64,000 bases of DNA. It comes from Enterobacteria phage vB_EcoM_IME339. Below, one piece after another: positions 1,654 through 61,794 of the stretch (position 1 is its first letter; each line of letters begins with the position of its first letter). The stretch lies in the sequence record MH051915. The stretch is one strand, 5' to 3'. The notes under the pieces are model-generated. The model was given only the letters and a program-made list of their open reading frames with translations, made no database searches and had not been told where the DNA came from. Position numbers and translations under genes: made by a program.

Positions 1654-2259
1654 ATGAAAATGCAAAGTGATTTCAATTCAATGTTTGAAGAGTTCCAAAG
1701 ACAGGTTGATGTTCCAGACCAATTACTAAATGCTCTTAAACGTATGGCAGAAGGACGTAATTATTATTGGGGGTCTTCATATGAAACTGATGAAAGTCTT
1801 TCTGGATTTTATAAAGGTAAAAAGTCTTTAATACGTCCTGGAATACTTATTAAAAGTATTGAATCAATTCATTCATTGACATGTGATTTTGATGTTGAAT
1901 TTACTGATTTCATTTCTCCTGAATGGACAGTTTGTTATTTAAATGACGATTATGATTATCTTGGCGTTTATAGTTTAAGTGACGCATGGTTTAAACGTAA
2001 TTTACAAAAGTCAAATTTGTTCTATATTGATACTACGGTAAAATTTCAGGGAAAGAAATATTTCTTTACTCTTATAGTTGATTCTGAAACAAAGCATGAA
2101 AATAAACGTATTCTTAGCAAAAAGAATATCTTAACTATTGTTGATGATCTTTTTGATAAATTCGTGGAAAATCCTAATTTTGAAAGCGATTTATTATTAG
2201 AAAAATTTGTTAAGGAATGTAGAGAATATGTCAAAGCCATCACTATACCTTCCAAGTAA
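1654..2259 (+). CDS. hypothetical protein (201 aa) sharing C-terminal junction motif with the next three genes
   Basis: C-terminus ...EKFVKECRE resembles the ...ECRK(I/L)K tails of the following ORFs. Confidence 0.5.
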   Translation: MKMQSDFNSMFEEFQRQVDVPDQLLNALKRMAEGRNYYWGSSYETDESLSGFYKGKKSLIRPGILIKSIESIHSLTCDFDVEFTDFISPEWTVCYLNDDYDYLGVYSLSDAWFKRNLQKSNLFYIDTTVKFQGKKYFFTLIVDSETKHENKRILSKKNILTIVDDLFDKFVENPNFESDLLLEKFVKECREYVKAITIPSK

Positions 2260-2620
2260 ACCTGTGAAGTATGAATTAAAGCGCCAGCTAATTTCTACTG
2301 ATGTATTAATAGGTCCTGTTATACTCATATCATTTGTAATTCTATTGATTATTGGAGGTGTTTTAGATGTTATGACTGATATTGATTCTGGCGAAATACT
2401 TGTGTTAATGCTAATTCTTCCATTAATAGTTCCACTTTTATTAGTACCTGTAAATTGGATAGGATATTGGTATCAAGGAAGACATTATCGTAAACGTGTA
2501 CGTGATTGGAAAGCACAGTGTAAAAAGATTAAAAAGGAACACCAGCTTAAACTTGTTGAGTATGAATTTAATGAAATTATGAAATTTGTTAAGGAATCAC
2601 GATGCAAAAGCCAAAACTAA
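2228..2620 (+). CDS. small membrane protein (about 130 aa, two predicted TM helices), paralog family
   Basis: ORF track 2207..2620; internal ATG at 2228; hydrophobic segments; C-terminal ...FVKESRC. Confidence 0.45.
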   Translation: MSKPSLYLPSKPVKYELKRQLISTDVLIGPVILISFVILLIIGGVLDVMTDIDSGEILVLMLILPLIVPLLLVPVNWIGYWYQGRHYRKRVRDWKAQCKKIKKEHQLKLVEYEFNEIMKFVKESRCKSQN

Positions 2621-2964
2621 ATAAAGTCAAATATTCGTTCCCCGAGGCACTATTAATTCTTGCCGTGTCAGTATTTGCAGCTCTTGCTGGTAGTCTTATT
2701 GGATTGTTAATTGACTGTATTATTTTAAACATCGATGGTTCAGCAATTATAACAGAGGTTTGGAGTGAACTTCGTTTTACTATAGCGATTACATTATTTT
2801 CATTCTTTGGTACCATGCTATATTTTCATTATGATAATTTTAAAATAAATTGGCAAAGAAAAAAGGATTACAAAATACAATTAAAAGAATATAATAGCTA
2901 CATGTCTTATATTGAAAATGAATCAATGAAAGAGTTTGTGAGTGATTGCAGGAAAATCAAATGA
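2602..2964 (+). CDS. small membrane protein (120 aa), paralog family
   Basis: Two hydrophobic helices; C-terminus ...EFVSDCRKIK; stop overlaps next ATG (AAATGA). Confidence 0.5.
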   Translation: MQKPKLNKVKYSFPEALLILAVSVFAALAGSLIGLLIDCIILNIDGSAIITEVWSELRFTIAITLFSFFGTMLYFHYDNFKINWQRKKDYKIQLKEYNSYMSYIENESMKEFVSDCRKIK

Positions 2965-4476: not shown

Positions 4477-4893
4477 ATGACTCGTATTAATTTGACTTTA
4501 GTATCTGAACTTGCTGATCAACATTTAATCGCAGAATACCGTGAACTGCCGCGTGTTTTTGGTATAGTTCGTAAACATGTTGCAAATGGTAAACGGGTTA
4601 AAGATTTTAAAATATCTTCCGAGTTTATTTTAGGTTCTGGTCATGTTACGTTCTTTTATGATAAGTTAGAATTTTTGCGAAAGCGTCAATCAGACATTAT
4701 AACGGAATGCTTAAAACGTGGGTTTAGTATAAAAGATACTGAAGTTCCTGACATCAGCGATATTCCAGCAGAATGGAAAAATGATTATAATCCATGCAAA
4801 TCAGCTATTAAGTTGAGTCAACAACGACTCGATGAAAAAATTTTAATGAAGCCACACTGGTATAAATACTACGGTAAAAATATTTACATTTAA
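4477..4893 (+). CDS. denV: endonuclease V (pyrimidine dimer glycosylase)
   Basis: 138 aa, [28 protein letters not shown]; strong similarity to recalled T4 DenV. Confidence 0.93.
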
Positions 4894-4902
4894 AGGAAAC
4901 AC

Positions 4903-5376
4903 ATGAAAACATATCAAGAATTTATCACTGAAGCAGCTATTAATTCTCAAATTATTGCTGAATCTTTTACTGATCTTTTGAAATTTAAAAAAGGTCAAAA
5001 AATCACTGCTGTATTGGATGATGGTACAGAAGTTGAGATGGATGTACAGGGATATAATTATGCAGTAGATGGAAAACTGTATAATAAATCTCACGCTAAA
5101 TTTGATTCATTTGACGACTTTGTTAATACAGTTGAAGATGAAAAAACTCGTAGATCAATTTCAACTGGCGATGCTAAGGTTCTTATGGCGCACGGCCATG
5201 AACGTATCCGCGCCAAACAGAATAAAATGGGTGAAGATAATTTTGCATTAGTTGGTTATCAATCTGGTAAGCAAACTTATGGCTATCAGCGTACTGCTAC
5301 CATGTATAACAAAAATGGTAAAATCGCTTTCGTGAATAGCAAAGGCTCTATTCAGTACGTCAAATCATTCAAATAA
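4903..5376 (+). CDS. internal protein with capsid-targeting N-terminus (IPII/IPIII-like)
   Basis: Starts MKTYQEFITEA, the CTS motif of T4 internal proteins; basic 157-aa body. Lies after denV rather than between e and denV. Confidence 0.7.
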   Translation: MKTYQEFITEAAINSQIIAESFTDLLKFKKGQKITAVLDDGTEVEMDVQGYNYAVDGKLYNKSHAKFDSFDDFVNTVEDEKTRRSISTGDAKVLMAHGHERIRAKQNKMGEDNFALVGYQSGKQTYGYQRTATMYNKNGKIAFVNSKGSIQYVKSFK

Positions 5377-17390: not shown

Positions 17391-17798
17391 ATGAAACAGT
17401 TGATAATTAAAAGATTGAATTTATTGATATGTTGTTTATGTGTAGTAGTTGCATATGGTTATTACGCAATTAATGATTATATGCATTATAAAGATTATGA
17501 TGTTACTGTAGTTAATACCATTACAGGAACACAAGGAAAAGGGTCTAGTTTATCGTTTATTGCCGTATATGAACTCAAAGATGGTTATAGATTTGGTGAA
17601 TATATTTCCCCAGAGATGTATTCTTCAATAGAAAAAGGTGATAATATTACTGTAAGTTTACGTCCTTTCGACGTAAAACAGACATGGTTTGATAATATTG
17701 TTTGGTTCTTTGGAATGGTATTAGTTCAATCTGTGTGTGGTGCTTATATAGTCTGTTCCATCTTATTCTGTATATTTAGTAAAATTGAAATTGAGTGA
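17391..17798 (+). CDS. membrane protein (135 aa)
   Basis: N- and C-terminal hydrophobic helices; -10-like TATAAT upstream. Confidence 0.5.
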   Translation: MKQLIIKRLNLLICCLCVVVAYGYYAINDYMHYKDYDVTVVNTITGTQGKGSSLSFIAVYELKDGYRFGEYISPEMYSSIEKGDNITVSLRPFDVKQTWFDNIVWFFGMVLVQSVCGAYIVCSILFCIFSKIEIE

Positions 17799-17863
17799 GG
17801 AAAATATGTCAGTAGTAATTAATAATGTCAATGCAGTAATTAAATCTTTAGTTAATAAAAAAA

Positions 17864-18697
17864 ATGATGAATGAATGGACTGTATTTCGTCGTGGAGAGC
17901 CAGATAAATTTTTTCATAGATTTAACCCAACTTTGGATTTGAATGTTATCGACAGAGATGTTCATGCTGAAATTTTAGATAAGTTTAAAGTTGATATTGG
18001 ATTTGGATTAGAAAAACATTTACAGCGAACAAATGGATCTGGAATGAGTTTATCTAATCGCATTATGAAAGCCCTTAATAAAATTGGAGCGTTGTCTCGT
18101 ATTAACGCGAGTGAAATTCTTCGTAATTATAATAAAGGATATGACCTTTATGGTCGACTAATGCCGAAGTTATCATTTGACCAAATGATTGCAGATTTGT
18201 GGGAAAATCAAAGACGATTATTAGCATTAGGCGCTCGATTAGCTAAAGGTCTAGATAAACAAATGATTTTTAAGACCAATAATACAGAAGACCTTAAATG
18301 CTTTAAATTTAGTATTCGTGGAGATGATTATTACATCAGAGCTCACTCTACAGATTATGTTAATATGGGTCATCATCTCTGTTTAGCTTTTGAAGTTTTA
18401 AAAGAAGCTGGAACATTAGAATATTCATCTGGGGCAAAATGTCCTATTGGTTCAAGTTGTATTTTAATTTATCGCCCGGATGAATCCAGTTCAACTACAT
18501 TGCCTACGAAACCTGTACCAGTTCGTAGTAACGAAAAACATTCTGAACAAATTGATTATTTTAATAAACAGATTGAAGAGCTGAATATTTCTATTCAACA
18601 ATATGACGATGAAATTTTCAGACTATCTGGATTGAGTAGTAAAGCTAAATCTGAGCGTGAAAAGTTAATTAAAATCGTTGATTTACTTAAATCTTAA
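17864..18697 (+). CDS. coiled-coil-tailed protein A (277 aa), tandem family member
   Basis: C-terminal heptad segment; first of four adjacent 280-350-aa ORFs of similar architecture. Confidence 0.55.
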   Translation: MMNEWTVFRRGEPDKFFHRFNPTLDLNVIDRDVHAEILDKFKVDIGFGLEKHLQRTNGSGMSLSNRIMKALNKIGALSRINASEILRNYNKGYDLYGRLMPKLSFDQMIADLWENQRRLLALGARLAKGLDKQMIFKTNNTEDLKCFKFSIRGDDYYIRAHSTDYVNMGHHLCLAFEVLKEAGTLEYSSGAKCPIGSSCILIYRPDESSSTTLPTKPVPVRSNEKHSEQIDYFNKQIEELNISIQQYDDEIFRLSGLSSKAKSEREKLIKIVDLLKS

Positions 18698-48971: not shown

Positions 48972-50000
48972 ATGTCATCAATACCTTGGATTGATAATGA
49001 GTTTGCATATCGTGCATTAGCTCATTTACCTAAATTCACACAAGTAAATAATAGTTCAACTTTTAAATTACGGTTTAGATGCCCCGTTTGCGGAGATTCA
49101 AAAACCGACCAAAATAAAGCCCGTGGATGGTATTACGGCGATAATAATGAAGGAAATATTCATTGTTATAACTGTAACTATCATGCACCAATCGGAATAT
49201 ATTTAAAGGAGTTTGAACCCGATTTATATCGTGAGTATATCTTTGAAATAAGAAAAGAAAAAGGTAAAAGTCGTCCAGTAGAAAAACTTAAAGAACTTCC
49301 TAAACAACCTGAGAAGAAAATAATTAAATCTCTTCCGTCATGCGTTAGATTAGATAAACTGGCGGAAGACCATCCAATTATAAAATATGTAAAAGCTCGC
49401 TGTATTCCAAAGGATAAATGGAAATATCTTTGGTTTACAACCGAATGGCCTAAATTAGTTAATAGCATAGCACCAGGAACATACAAAAAGGAAATACCTG
49501 AGCCTCGTCTTGTTATTCCAATTTATAATGCTAATGGAAAAGCTGAGTCTTTTCAAGGACGTGCATTAAAGAAAGATGCTCCTCAAAAATATATCACCAT
49601 CAAAGCTTATCCTGAGGCAACAAAAATTTATGGAGTTGAACGAGTCAAAGATGGTGATGTATATGTTCTAGAAGGACCCATAGATTCACTTTTTATTGAA
49701 AATGGTATAGCTATTACGGGTGGTCAATTAGACCTAGAAATTGTTCCATTTAAAGATAGACGTGTGTGGGTTTTAGATAATGAACCTCGTCATCCTGACA
49801 CTATTAAACGAATGACTAAATTAGTTGATGCAGGAGAAAGGGTTATGTTTTGGGACAAATCTCCCTGGAAATCAAAAGATGTTAATGATATGATTAGAAA
49901 GGAAGGTGCAACCCCTGAACAAATTATGGAATATATGAAAAATAATATTGCTCAAGGGTTGATGGCTAAAATGCGGCTATCTAAATATGCTAAGATTTAA
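48972..50000 (+). CDS. 61: DNA primase gp61
   Basis: 342 aa; zinc-ribbon CPVCGDSK...CYNC; Toprim core. Confidence 0.95.
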   Translation: MSSIPWIDNEFAYRALAHLPKFTQVNNSSTFKLRFRCPVCGDSKTDQNKARGWYYGDNNEGNIHCYNCNYHAPIGIYLKEFEPDLYREYIFEIRKEKGKSRPVEKLKELPKQPEKKIIKSLPSCVRLDKLAEDHPIIKYVKARCIPKDKWKYLWFTTEWPKLVNSIAPGTYKKEIPEPRLVIPIYNANGKAESFQGRALKKDAPQKYITIKAYPEATKIYGVERVKDGDVYVLEGPIDSLFIENGIAITGGQLDLEIVPFKDRRVWVLDNEPRHPDTIKRMTKLVDAGERVMFWDKSPWKSKDVNDMIRKEGATPEQIMEYMKNNIAQGLMAKMRLSKYAKI

Positions 50001-50197
50001 ATTAACCCAACCAAAGCAAATGCTAAATCTACGAATGTATCAAGAGTAATTACTGGAATACTAACGCCATGAGCAATAGCAACTGGCGATAAAACAAAAT
50101 TCCAAAGTAAAATTCCTATCATAGCAGAAATAGTAAAAGCTATACGTTTTTTATTACCTTTTATGGCATTAACAAGTGCCATTAATTTTTGTACCAT
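49997..50197 (-). CDS. small hydrophobic membrane protein (66 aa), antisense-oriented
   Basis: Only ORF in the 61-56 intergenic gap; GGAGGA SD 5-10 nt upstream on minus strand. Confidence 0.45.
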   Translation of the reverse strand: MVQKLMALVNAIKGNKKRIAFTISAMIGILLWNFVLSPVAIAHGVSIPVITLDTFVDLAFALVGLI

Positions 50198-50268
50198 ATA
50201 TCCTCCTTATTGCTTTATATATTTATTGTATAATTAATCTACTAATCCATGAATTGAAAGGAAAAATA

Positions 50269-50787
50269 ATGGCATACTTTAATGAATGCGCTCATTTGAT
50301 CGAAGGTGTTGATAAAGCAAATCGTGCATATGCTGAGAATATTATGCACAATATTGACCCGCTGCAGGTTATGCTTGATATGCAGCGGCATTTACAAATT
50401 CGTTTGGCTAACGATAAACCAGAAACAAATCGTCATCCCGATTCACTTGAAACTGCGGGAGAAGTTCTTGCTTGGCTGCGAAACCAAGACGATTATATCG
50501 CAGACGAAACTCGCGAGCTATATACTTCTCTTGGTGGTATGAGCAATGGCGAAAAAGAAGCTTCTGCTGTATGGAAACCTTGGAAGAAACGTTATTCTGA
50601 AATGCAATCCAAGAAAATTCAAGATTTATCTCCTGAAGATCAACTTGAAATTAAATTTGAATTGATTGATCAATTTCACTTTTTCATGAATAAATTCATT
50701 GCTCTTGGAATGTCAGCTGAAGAAATCTTTAAACTTTATTATTTGAAAAATGCTGAAAACTTCGCTCGTCAAGATCGAGGTTATTAA
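50269..50787 (+). CDS. 56: dCTP pyrophosphatase gp56 (MazG-like)
   Basis: ORF track 50176 (extension rejected); ATG 50269. Confidence 0.85.
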   Translation: MAYFNECAHLIEGVDKANRAYAENIMHNIDPLQVMLDMQRHLQIRLANDKPETNRHPDSLETAGEVLAWLRNQDDYIADETRELYTSLGGMSNGEKEASAVWKPWKKRYSEMQSKKIQDLSPEDQLEIKFELIDQFHFFMNKFIALGMSAEEIFKLYYLKNAENFARQDRGY

Positions 50788-50987
50788 TGGCTCGTTTAAA
50801 TAAACGCCAGCTTAAGAAAGCCCACAAGAAACGTATTGACCAGCTATTTAAAAATTATGACAAAGAGCTCGTGTGTGAGCTCTTATCTAATCAGCTTCGT
50901 GCGGTTGATTGGGTTGTAGAAGAAGGTCCTGATGAAATTTTTGTCAGCGAAGAAGCCTTAAAATTAATTATAGAGCATTCAAAATGA
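50787..50987 (+). CDS. hypothetical basic protein (66 aa)
   Basis: ORF track; TAATG junction. Confidence 0.45.
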   Translation: MARLNKRQLKKAHKKRIDQLFKNYDKELVCELLSNQLRAVDWVVEEGPDEIFVSEEALKLIIEHSK

Positions 50988-51157
50988 AAATATCCAAAGA
51001 AGAATTTATTAGACGACAAAAAGCTTTAATTAATTTACACGAGTGGTATGCTTACCAGCTTAAAGTAGATAGCTCTAATATAAATGCTGTAATGGCTTTA
51101 TATAAACAAATTCAAGATGAACACGAATTCCTGGCACAAGTTTTCATTGAAGACTGA
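50984..51157 (+). CDS. hypothetical protein (57 aa)
   Basis: Hand-translated; ATGA junction. Confidence 0.35.
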   Translation: MKISKEEFIRRQKALINLHEWYAYQLKVDSSNINAVMALYKQIQDEHEFLAQVFIED

Positions 51158-51165
51158 TATAAATA
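51158..51165 (+). promoter_or_regulatory. late promoter motif TATAAATA upstream of soc
   Basis: Exact TATAAATA 32 nt before soc ATG. Confidence 0.6.
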
Positions 51166-51196
51166 CACCTGTAATTAAACAATAAAGGAGTTTATT

Positions 51197-51433
51197 ATGG
51201 GTGGTTTCGTTAACATCAAGACCTTTACTCATCCAGCGGGTGAAGGCAAAGAAGTTAAAGGTATGGAAGTTTCTGTTCCGTTTGAAATTTATTCTAACGA
51301 GCATCGTATCGCAGATTCTCATTATCAGATCTTTCCGTCAGAAAAGGCAGCATATTCTACTGTAGTTTCTGATGCAGCTGATTGGAAAACTAAGAATGCT
51401 GCAATGTTTACGCCTACACAAATAGGTGGTTAA
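51197..51433 (+). CDS. soc: small outer capsid protein Soc
   Basis: 78 aa; ...VNIKTF...HYQIFPSEKAAYSTV... recalled as Soc-like. Confidence 0.8.
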   Translation: MGGFVNIKTFTHPAGEGKEVKGMEVSVPFEIYSNEHRIADSHYQIFPSEKAAYSTVVSDAADWKTKNAAMFTPTQIGG

Positions 51434-61422: not shown

Positions 61423-61794
61423 ATGTTTAAAATTGGTAAGAAATATCGTGTTCGCGAAGGTGAAGAAAAGAAATATCTACTTTCTTCTATTTATAGGAAT
61501 GGTTCTATTAATGCCGTAATATCTACAAGTGAATTTATCGTTGAAGATATGAAAGGTAATAATGTTACAATGATTAGTACAGCATCTGGAAATGATGGAA
61601 AAATTCTTCACAGTTTTCAGAGTAATGTTCTAATTTATGATGAAGAATTTGACTTCTTCGAAGAAGTTACAGAAGATTTTGATTTTGAATGCACTATCAC
61701 TATGAAATCTGGCGACCCTATTTCTTTTACAGTTAAAGATGAAAGAAGTCGCTTGAGAATTATTAGTCTCCTTCAAGCCATTAAATTTGAGTGA
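61423..61794 (+). CDS. hypothetical protein (123 aa)
   Basis: ORF track. Confidence 0.5.
   Translation: MFKIGKKYRVREGEEKKYLLSSIYRNGSINAVISTSEFIVEDMKGNNVTMISTASGNDGKILHSFQSNVLIYDEEFDFFEEVTEDFDFECTITMKSGDPISFTVKDERSRLRIISLLQAIKFE

Follow-up and report, generated by a model that had tools for sequence, protein, structure and literature searches.

Described loci and related small proteins

The closest described system is the corresponding region of phage T4 (NC_000866.4, 16.3-19.0 kb; X01416), in which the genes follow the order 61, dam, 56, as the initial annotation had correctly stated. It shares with the locus studied here the flanking genes 61 and 56, a small open reading frame (ORF) on the opposite strand that adjoins the end of gene 61, and a middle promoter of the MotA type before gene 56, but differs by a cassette of ~880 bp, carrying an early promoter and dam, which is placed between the ribosome-binding site of the ORF and the MotA box. 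Moreover, the family to which this ORF belongs, phrog_2024, has named members in other phages (RB32ORF030w, RB69ORF029w and VR7ORF033w), which agree with the ORF found here in family, position and orientation and show no difference of substance from it; no member has an assigned function.

Class II holins and pinholins (such as phage 21 S68) and lysis regulators (such as the T4 RI antiholin) are small proteins with one or two transmembrane (TM) segments and late expression, and the product of the small ORF resembles them in its size, in its predicted TM segments and in its putative late expression. Furthermore, T4 soc is also a small gene with a TATAAATA-type promoter, appearing among early and middle genes near gene 56. 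However, soc shares the strand of the early genes around it and its product decorates the capsid, whereas the ORF studied here is read from the opposite strand and its product is a predicted membrane protein.

Arrangement of the interval between genes 61 and 56

The whole stretch of DNA that was analysed, 64 kb long and hereafter called the window, presented the following features from gene 61 to gene 56:

48972-50000, plus strand: gene 61, DNA primase (342-aa ORF; phrog_47, E-value 9.5e-107)
49997-50197, minus strand: gene of the small hydrophobic protein, 66 aa (ATG-initiated ORF; phrog_2024)
50163-50192, plus strand: hairpin ATGGCATT-AACA-AGTGCCAT followed by TAATTTTTGT, within codons 2-12 of the small ORF (terminator scan)
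50202-50208, minus strand: AAGGAGG, the Shine-Dalgarno sequence belonging to the small ORF, whose ATG follows after 4 nt (sequence inspection)
50208-50209, no strand assigned: junction of the dam cassette, empty here, the insert of other phages lying between CCTCCTT and ATTGCTT (interval comparison)
50208-50217, plus strand: MotA box tatTGCTTTA of the middle promoter of gene 56 (consensus match)
50220-50227, minus strand: late-promoter motif AATAAATA, 22 nt upstream of the ATG of the small ORF, a one-off variant of the consensus
50229-50234, plus strand: TATAAT, the -10 element of the middle promoter of gene 56, separated from the MotA box by 11 nt (sequence inspection)
50269-50787, plus strand: gene 56, dCTPase/dUTPase (172 aa; phrog_173, E-value 2.4e-44; annotated as gp56 in RB14 and T4)

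The primase gp61 was ~97% identical to those of T4 and RB14, and the stop codons of gene 61 and of the small ORF overlapped (TTTAAA), the two genes being convergent. The interval, initially put at ~270 bp, was found to be 268 bp long, with gene 56 starting at 50269 and not at 50270, and the hydrophobic minus-strand ORF with a good Shine-Dalgarno sequence that had been reported there was recovered. Between genes 61 and 56, T-even phages would have a variable insertion site, present here as its dam-less allele, with one real gene and two back-to-back promoters. The explanation as a whole, combining a dam-less allele, a constant small gene, a late and a middle promoter and an optional Dam cassette, was considered highly probable.

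Absence of dam and its optional cassette

In agreement with the initial annotation, no Dam was found in the window: the best tblastn hit of T4 Dam had an E-value of 1.5, and the motif (D/N/S)PP(Y/F/W) appeared in short or unrelated frames only, none of them being a methylase-sized ORF. The closest complete relative, Ec_MI-02, presented the same order of 61, ORF and 56 without dam, and no Dam was found in its whole genome, in which T4 Dam reached a best tblastn E-value of 1.0 and no methylase-like ORF with a DPPY motif was detected. Taking its own sequence (the 64-kb window) together with Ec_MI-02 as a whole-genome proxy, the source phage most probably lacks any Dam. On the other hand, the idea that the ORF stands there instead of dam had to be abandoned, as T4 has both: an intact copy of the ORF, 92% identical and unannotated in NC_000866.4, lies at 17738-17938 on the plus strand, within the 309 bp that separate 61 from dam. 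Nor is the lack of dam unusual, the same layout being shared by T6, RB14, the Mosigvirus ST0 and the Gaprivervirus VR7.

When the 61-56 intervals of T-even phages were compared, as had been suggested, three forms were distinguished, in which the small ORF was constant and dam optional: 268 bp (the window, RB14 and loci L007 to L009), 1147-1149 bp (T4 and locus L006) and 1696 bp (locus L010). The cassette measured ~880 bp in phages of the T4/T2 type, and ~1430 bp when an extra 186-aa ORF was present. Judging from the intervals compared, what stays constant at the site is the small ORF, beside which Dam is inserted as an optional cassette. Moreover, a T4-type Dam (at least 90%) was found in ~182 phage records, versus 501 records with the small ORF at an identity of at least 80% (out of 691 records with the ORF), and the form without dam is the more common of the two. 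The Dam cassette, with its own early promoter, lies between the ribosome-binding site of the small gene and the MotA box; T4, T2 and about a third of the Tequatrovirus records bear it, and this phage resembles T6 and RB14, which are without it.

A Tequatrovirus ancestor that carried dam and lost it by secondary deletion, in which case the dam-less state would not be ancestral, is favoured by the intermixing of dam-plus and dam-minus phages, by the ORF of the dam-bearing locus L006, which was 98.5% identical to that of the window (versus only 92% for the ORF of the dam-less RB14), and by the AT-rich short repeats (AATTAAT) present at both ends of the T4 cassette. However, the site is without dam in three outgroup genera, and the more distant Dam homologues sit at other loci, adjoining nrdC/49 in Krischvirus and in a Klebsiella phage, and denV in an Aeromonas phage. 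Since the sequences at the window junction do not match it, a simple deletion between the repeats of T4 was discarded as a source of this junction; the promoter segment differs too. Overall, such a deletion appears rather unlikely, and the insertion of an optional cassette at a dam-less site is preferred. The outgroups were the only guide to the direction of the event, and a loss of dam within Tequatrovirus is possible.

Distribution of the small gene

At least four genera have kept the small ORF (Tequatrovirus, with T4 among its members, Mosigvirus, Gaprivervirus and Marfavirus), and its place on the opposite strand, directly after the 3' end of gene 61, was kept in RB14, T4, T6, ST0, VR7, Marfa and Ec_MI-02. 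Proteins 100% identical to that of the window were found in WL-3, KIT06 and Lv5cm, where they are labelled 'hypothetical protein'. Public records already contain an identical protein as well as the configuration of the locus; the arrangement is a common one, and T4 too has the conserved small gene. Furthermore, a paralogue type found in Marfa also belonged to phrog_2024 (E-value 9e-26), and VR7 carried a tandem paralogue of the small gene. This type-B subfamily, comprising the Marfa protein and the second VR7 copy, had only the core W-N-x4-P...G...P in common with the window protein. In the 61-56 interval of Karamvirus, no antisense homologue was found, and a MazG-like ORF appeared on the plus strand instead. 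Finally, a profile search among 1.84 billion representatives recovered only six proteins, all of them small proteins of the T-even type, and therefore no bacterial or annotated relatives of the small protein.

Promoter of gene 56 and putative promoter of the small gene

MotA boxes have the consensus (a/t)(a/t)(a/t)TGCTTtA and are located 12 +/- 1 bp from the -10 element (PMC2988021). Upstream of gene 56, a MotA box, a gap of 11 nt and a sigma-70-type -10 element were found at 50208-50234, as in a middle promoter. Its counterpart is the T4 middle promoter P(M)16.53, the equivalent element being annotated in X01416; this T4 promoter is situated immediately upstream of the oriA mark, which the T4 annotation places within gene 56. 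The MotA-dependent middle promoter of gene 56 is located on the plus strand of the window.

The late-promoter consensus of T4 is TATAAATA, whereas AATAAATA has A at position -13. This A(-13) variant appears in 9 of 50 listed T4 late promoters, being the commonest natural variant (PMC2988020). T4 late genes, dependent on gp55, gp33 and gp45, are marked by a TATAAATA-type -10 element shortly upstream, and AATAAATA was found at such a place, 22 nt from the ATG. On the minus strand of the 64-kb window, NATAAATA occurred only four times, and the chance of encountering it inside a 12-nt positional window was ~1e-3. It was present 16-22 nt before the ORF start in all 15 loci compared, and in five out of five sequence contexts, with a perfect TATAAATA upstream of the small gene at the Marfa locus. 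Moreover, the same late motif correctly marked soc, for which TATAAATA was found at 51158 and the gene at 51197. In T4, the late-type motif of the ORF (GATAAATA) is located in the end of the cassette, while in the window AATAAATA is located in the spacer of the gene-56 promoter. There, the minus-strand motif (50227-50220) is followed by the strong ribosome-binding site and the 66-codon gene, which would be transcribed late by gp55-RNA polymerase from a start ~17 nt before the ATG, near 50214. These motifs suggest that the small gene is probably expressed late. A literature search gave nothing relevant on the ORF names, on antisense or late T4 transcripts in the vicinity of gene 61, or from T4 ribosome-profiling or small-protein studies.

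Predicted product and possible role

Hydropathy peaks were observed at residues 23-41 and 48-66 of the 66-aa protein, which allow two TM segments, and the charge was +5 at the N-terminus and -2 at the C-terminus. The AF2 model, built from 10 sequences only, had three helices with a pLDDT of 79.6, among them one long helix and a short C-terminal one. A small protein of the inner membrane is predicted: a basic amphipathic helix at its N-terminus would lie in the cytoplasm, one long transmembrane helix would bear the family-invariant motif W-N-x4-P, and the acidic hydrophobic C-terminal segment would face the periplasm or re-enter the membrane.

Searches of Pfam, NCBIfam and PADLOC gave no match for the small protein, while the sequence-profile search of PDB yielded no more than a non-significant match to a membrane segment of NqrE (E-value 0.05), and Foldseek against BFVD returned only its own family and, weakly, a 63-aa Karamvirus protein (E-value 0.05). 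Two names carried by homologues were rejected, namely 'putative head morphogenesis protein' (T6 and BW-1), an unreliable automatic transfer, and 'Holin' (the OE5505 homologue), an unreviewed automatic name. The similarity notes of the T6 record were plainly inconsistent, gp56 being noted there as 'ferredoxin', for instance.

As a best guess, and a weakly supported one, the small protein is a TM modulator and not an enzyme or a part of the virion. It might bind another membrane protein late in infection and act on lysis timing, the envelope or exclusion. In its most complete form, this proposal describes an overlooked late gene of T4 and all its close relatives, encoding a 66-aa inner-membrane protein with an intramembrane W-N-x4-P motif that would bind a membrane protein (e.g. 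holin T, the RI system or a host envelope factor) and would in this way adjust exclusion or the timing of lysis, and whose promoter would also drive antisense RNA into the primase gene; taken with all these details, it is unlikely.

Less probable still is a direct role in lysis as a holin- or pinholin-like pore former, with two TM segments, both termini inside the cell and an acidic face of the second helix lining the channel. The size of the protein and its two hydrophobic peaks, the late-type promoter, the 'Holin' label and the position of D53 and D57 on one helical face are in line with such a role. However, that label is the automatic one mentioned above, and the type-B paralogues have not kept the acidic motif. 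The charged hydrophilic C-terminal tail, the lysis-cassette neighbourhood and the holin-family match that identify holins were all missing: the C-terminus is hydrophobic (...ALVGLI), the neighbours are a primase and a dCTPase, with no adjoining endolysin or spanin gene, and neither sequence nor profile similarity was found to class II holins, pinholins or RI, or to any holin family of Pfam or NCBIfam. Moreover, T-even phages already have holin T, antiholins (RI, RIII) and spanins. A small membrane modulator remains the preferred guess over a pore former.

Coding status and probable antisense transcription

The small ORF, presented initially as a plausible gene, proved to be a real one. Its dN/dS was 0.12-0.15 within genera, with 8, 2 and 12 variable sites at codon positions 1, 2 and 3, respectively, the changes being mainly V/I swaps or third-position substitutions. 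Between genera, at 46-54% identity and dS >1, the frame, the length (65-66 aa), the start and the Shine-Dalgarno sequence were kept, the latter being strong in 15 of the 15 loci compared. Furthermore, residues 2-66 matched positions 1-65 of the 65 of the phrog_2024 profile (E-value 1.9e-30), that is, its full length. In DNA with 35% GC, an open frame of 66 codons is marginal by length alone; the ORF is convincing as a gene because of the purifying selection and the full-length profile match, not because of its length. By the sequences compared, its status as a protein-coding gene is established. In the first 75 kb of Ec_MI-02, with ~144 genes, it was the sole CDS on the opposite strand.

The plus-strand hairpin within the first codons of the ORF had a folding energy of -8.9 kcal/mol (z -2.3) and was found in Tequatrovirus only, being absent from ST0 and VR7; it is possibly an intrinsic terminator for gene-61 transcripts. 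On the minus strand, the terminator scan found no intrinsic-terminator motif for 4 kb downstream of the small ORF, because of which the late minus-strand transcript would probably run on antisense into gene 61. For some regions of T4, it is known that transcription uses one strand and the other at different times (PMC2988020). This, together with the overlap of the convergent genes at their stops and the lack of that motif, would favour an RNA-level main function, in which a late antisense RNA would act against gene 61 and the upstream early mRNAs, the ORF being secondary. However, codon-level purifying selection, a conserved Shine-Dalgarno sequence and start, and the duplication of the paralogue are not imposed by an antisense function, which makes such a main function very improbable, and a protein-coding gene is preferred. 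The antisense-RNA and protein roles of the small gene are not mutually exclusive. As a side observation, in systems of the type I toxin-antitoxin kind an overlapping antisense RNA controls the mRNA of a small membrane toxin; a convergent overlap of the ORF with the gene-61 mRNA is present here, and PADLOC gave no match.

Finally, a chance open frame, whose conservation would reflect DNA or RNA constraints (the 3' UTR or terminator of gene 61, promoter or origin elements) and not a protein, can be dismissed as extremely unlikely: although 66 open codons are not very improbable at this GC content, a hairpin with a T-run sits within the ORF and the T4 reference annotation left the ORF out, the substitution pattern and the features kept across genera speak against it, as do the second paralogue type with its tandem duplicate in VR7, the lack of conservation of the hairpin beyond Tequatrovirus, and an Rfam scan of the 61-56 interval, in which only a miRNA match below the gathering score was found (22.2 vs. 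71.8 bits) and taken as chance.

Significance for T-even phages

Dam is regarded as an anti-restriction function protecting GATC sites (PMC13353012). Its absence here matters little: in T-even phages dam is an accessory and mobile gene, which hundreds of sequenced relatives, the classical phage T6 among them, do not have at the 61-56 site. The small gene is one among many small phage membrane proteins without a known role, and is of modest interest in being conserved, probably late and omitted from the T4 reference annotation, and in its placement in a very compact bidirectional promoter region, with the gene-56 promoter near T4 oriA. In practical terms, it offers a correction to the T4 annotation and a cheap knock-out candidate for lysis and envelope studies.

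The interval between genes 61 and 56

The window corresponds to the early region of a Tequatrovirus (T4-like), in the orientation opposite to the T4 GenBank record, with Escherichia phage Ec_MI-02 as best match (~97% over 24 kb); 99% over the full length was reached by no record. The initial annotation had described a 61-56 interval of about 270 bp without dam, holding an antisense small membrane-protein ORF with a good ribosome-binding site instead. As an observation this was confirmed: the interval spans 268 bp and contains the ORF, and the stop codons of the ORF and gene 61 overlap. Moreover, no homologue of T4 Dam was found in the window by tblastn (best E 1.5), nor any (D/N/S)PP(Y/F/W) motif in a methylase-sized frame. 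The T4 order given there was also correct (61, dam, 56 in NC_000866.4). The features of the region were as follows.

48972-50000, plus strand: gene 61 (primase)
49997-50197, minus strand: small ORF, 66 aa, ATG start, AAGGAGG 4 nt before the ATG
50163-50192, plus strand: hairpin with T-run (dG -8.9, z -2.3)
50208-50217, plus strand: MotA box tatTGCTTTA
50227-50220, minus strand: late-type motif AATAAATA, 22 nt before the small-ORF ATG
50229-50234, plus strand: -10 element TATAAT, 11 nt after the MotA box
50269-50787, plus strand: gene 56 (dCTPase)
50787-50987 and 50984-51157: two small ORFs before soc
51197-51433: soc, with a perfect TATAAATA at 51158

The segF homing-endonuclease gene, present in T4 and VR7, was absent after gene 56 (50787-51433). 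Among Tequatroviruses, the 5′ part of gene 56 occurred as two alleles, ~75% identical.

dam as an insert beside a constant gene

The part of the claim that did not hold was the replacement of dam by the ORF, as T4 carries both. In T4 (NC_000866.4), an unannotated 309-bp gap separates 61 from dam and contains an intact copy of this 66-aa ORF (92% identity), which has the ribosome-binding site in common and likewise overlaps gene 61 at the stop codon. The T4 RefSeq has no CDS for it (L002, the T4 locus, 4739-4939, plus strand; NC_000866.4 17738-17938, plus strand), an omission from the annotation of the reference phage. Alignment of the 61-56 intervals from 13 loci distinguished three length forms in Tequatrovirus.

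268 bp: the window, RB14 and three IMG/VR contigs
~1148 bp: T4 and L006, a dam-carrying locus
1696 bp: L010, a dam-carrying IMG/VR contig

The extra DNA was placed exactly between CCTCCTT (plus-strand view of the ORF ribosome-binding site) and ATTGCTT (gene-56 MotA box), a position that identifies dam as an inserted cassette, with its own early promoter, beside a small gene that stays constant.

The arrangement 61-ORF-56 without dam was found in T6, RB14, Ec_MI-02, Mosigvirus ST0 and Gaprivervirus VR7. A total of 691 phage records had the small ORF (tblastn), 501 of them at ≥80% identity, and about 182 records had a T4-type Dam at ≥90% identity. The nearest relative with a complete genome is Ec_MI-02; searched in full, it gave neither a Dam homologue (best E 1.0) nor a methylase-like DPPY ORF, and it carries no annotated methyltransferase. 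The dam-less configuration is common, in hundreds of genomes already deposited, with the small ORF annotated as hypothetical. Dam homologues in more distant T4-like phages (45-58% identity) occupied other loci: in Krischvirus ECD7 and a Klebsiella phage the neighbours are nrdC and gene 49, and in an Aeromonas phage the neighbour is denV. A secondary loss of dam within Tequatrovirus is possible; the most economical reading is a lineage-specific acquisition at the 61/56 site, swapped among Tequatroviruses by recombination. Such an exchange is suggested by L006, which has dam, yet its small ORF is 98.5% identical to that of the window.

A gene for a MazG-like pyrophosphohydrolase (93-94 aa) lies between 61 and 56 in Karamvirus UFV01 (L020 1671-1955, plus strand) and Klebsiella phage Marfa (L021 855-1136, plus strand), and Marfa (Marfavirus) has there an additional gene of 252 aa, with a hydrophobic stretch at the N terminus that may resemble a signal peptide. 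The junction is therefore a general cassette hotspot. Outside the window, a 186-aa ORF was found in L010 (IMGVR_UViG_2974787500_000001, 1841-2401, minus strand; phrog_8706, E 6e-116). In some Tequatroviruses it lies immediately upstream of dam, its stop overlapping the dam start codon, and several Dam matches listed a 'hypothetical protein' beside dam. It contains a D...EIK-like motif, resembles the DpnII (GATC) restriction endonuclease family PF04556 weakly and below threshold (E 0.0045; 16.8 bits vs. a cut-off of 23), and could form with dam a phage-borne GATC restriction-modification pair.

GATC was strongly under-represented in the window (1-64000; 69 observed vs. ~200 expected, ratio 0.34) and across the whole dam-less Ec_MI-02 genome (ratio 0.41).

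Conservation and family of the small gene

Pairwise dN/dS of the small ORF was 0.12-0.15 within Tequatrovirus and within Mosigvirus, and 0.3-0.4 between genera, where dS exceeded 1. Variable sites at codon positions 1, 2 and 3 numbered 8, 2 and 12, and length (65-66 aa), start and ribosome-binding site were retained at 46-54% amino-acid identity. As only 4 nt are overlapped on the other strand, this constraint is its own; judged from sequence, the ORF is a real gene, and that it is spurious is essentially excluded. The product belongs to phrog_2024 (E 2e-30), has long been annotated elsewhere (RB32ORF030w, RB69ORF029w, VR7ORF033w), and has 100% identical counterparts in public records named 'hypothetical protein'.

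A second subfamily (type B), also phrog_2024 (E 9e-26), occupies the same position in Marfa, as its only copy (L021 626-826, minus strand), and a perfect TATAAATA stands 19 nt upstream of its ATG. In VR7, the annotated copy (VR7ORF033w) is followed, before gene 61, by an unannotated type-B paralogue in tandem (L004 about 2702-2900, plus strand). Only W32, N33, P38, G44 and P48 were invariant across both types. Among 1.84 billion representatives, a profile search found only six proteins, all T-even-type small proteins, which indicates a family confined to T-even-like phages. T6 has ATT (L013 2501-2503) in place of the ORF ATG of all other phages, and the CDS in its record begins at Met6; neither the product labels nor the similarity notes of that record can be relied on (gp56, for example, is noted 'ferredoxin').

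A middle promoter and an interleaved probable late promoter

MotA-dependent middle promoters have the consensus (a/t)(a/t)(a/t)TGCTTtA, 12 ± 1 bp from the -10 (PMC2988021), and 50208-50234 (plus strand) reads as a textbook example serving gene 56. It is the counterpart of T4 P(M)16.53, just upstream of the oriA mark, which the T4 record puts inside gene 56. The hairpin at 50163-50192, specific to Tequatrovirus, could terminate gene-61 transcripts.

The late-type motif AATAAATA sits inside the spacer of this middle promoter. The T4 late promoter is TATAAATA, perfect in 32 of 50 listed cases and with A at -13 in nine of 50 (PMC2988020). In the window, ATAAATA is strongly avoided (10 copies in the 64 kb, both strands counted), and the minus strand has only four NATAAATA, the chance of a copy at the right distance being ~1e-3. 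Of the five plus-strand copies of TATAAATA, one (51158) is that of soc, a known late gene. Moreover, exactly one NATAAATA was found 16-22 nt before the small-ORF start in 15/15 loci examined, representing five unrelated upstream contexts (window type, T4 cassette type, Mosigvirus, VR7 and Marfa); the Marfa motif is a perfect TATAAATA. The rarity of the motif, its presence in all these loci and its marking of soc point to late, gp55-dependent minus-strand transcription from ~50214, and the small gene appears to be a late gene with its promoter interleaved with the gene-56 middle promoter. As the 4 kb downstream of the ORF showed no terminator on the minus strand, the transcript probably continues antisense into gene 61.

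Late-promoter-like motifs were also observed on the minus strand at 61495 (TATAAATA) and 6452 (AATAAATA), with no obvious ribosome-binding site or ORF behind either; these are possible antisense late promoters within early genes.

Predicted product and role

With a GRAVY of 1.29 the protein is very hydrophobic; it has a charge of +5 in the N-terminal 20 residues and -2 in the last 24, and hydropathy peaks at residues 23-41 and 48-66. AlphaFold2 (10-sequence alignment, pLDDT 79.6) predicted helices at 2-12, 16-42 and 52-62. The positive-inside rule would place the N-terminal amphipathic helix in the cytoplasm and the long helix, which carries the invariant W-N-x4-P, across the membrane, while the C-terminal DTFVD segment might be periplasmic, at the interface or a second span. 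No functional relative was found in Pfam, NCBIfam, PADLOC, the PDB sequence profile or BFVD folds. For two homologues the records read 'Holin' and 'head morphogenesis protein'; both names are automatic and unreliable.

Our guess, weakly supported, is a small transmembrane modulator that, late in infection, binds another protein of the membrane. A rival, holin-like role as a pore former is improbable; a role primarily as antisense RNA, for which the probable read-through into gene 61 would speak and the constraint on the protein would not, is more improbable still. Possibly mildly useful are two points: the T4 reference annotation is without a conserved small gene, and this gene looks late, its promoter interleaved with the middle promoter of gene 56.
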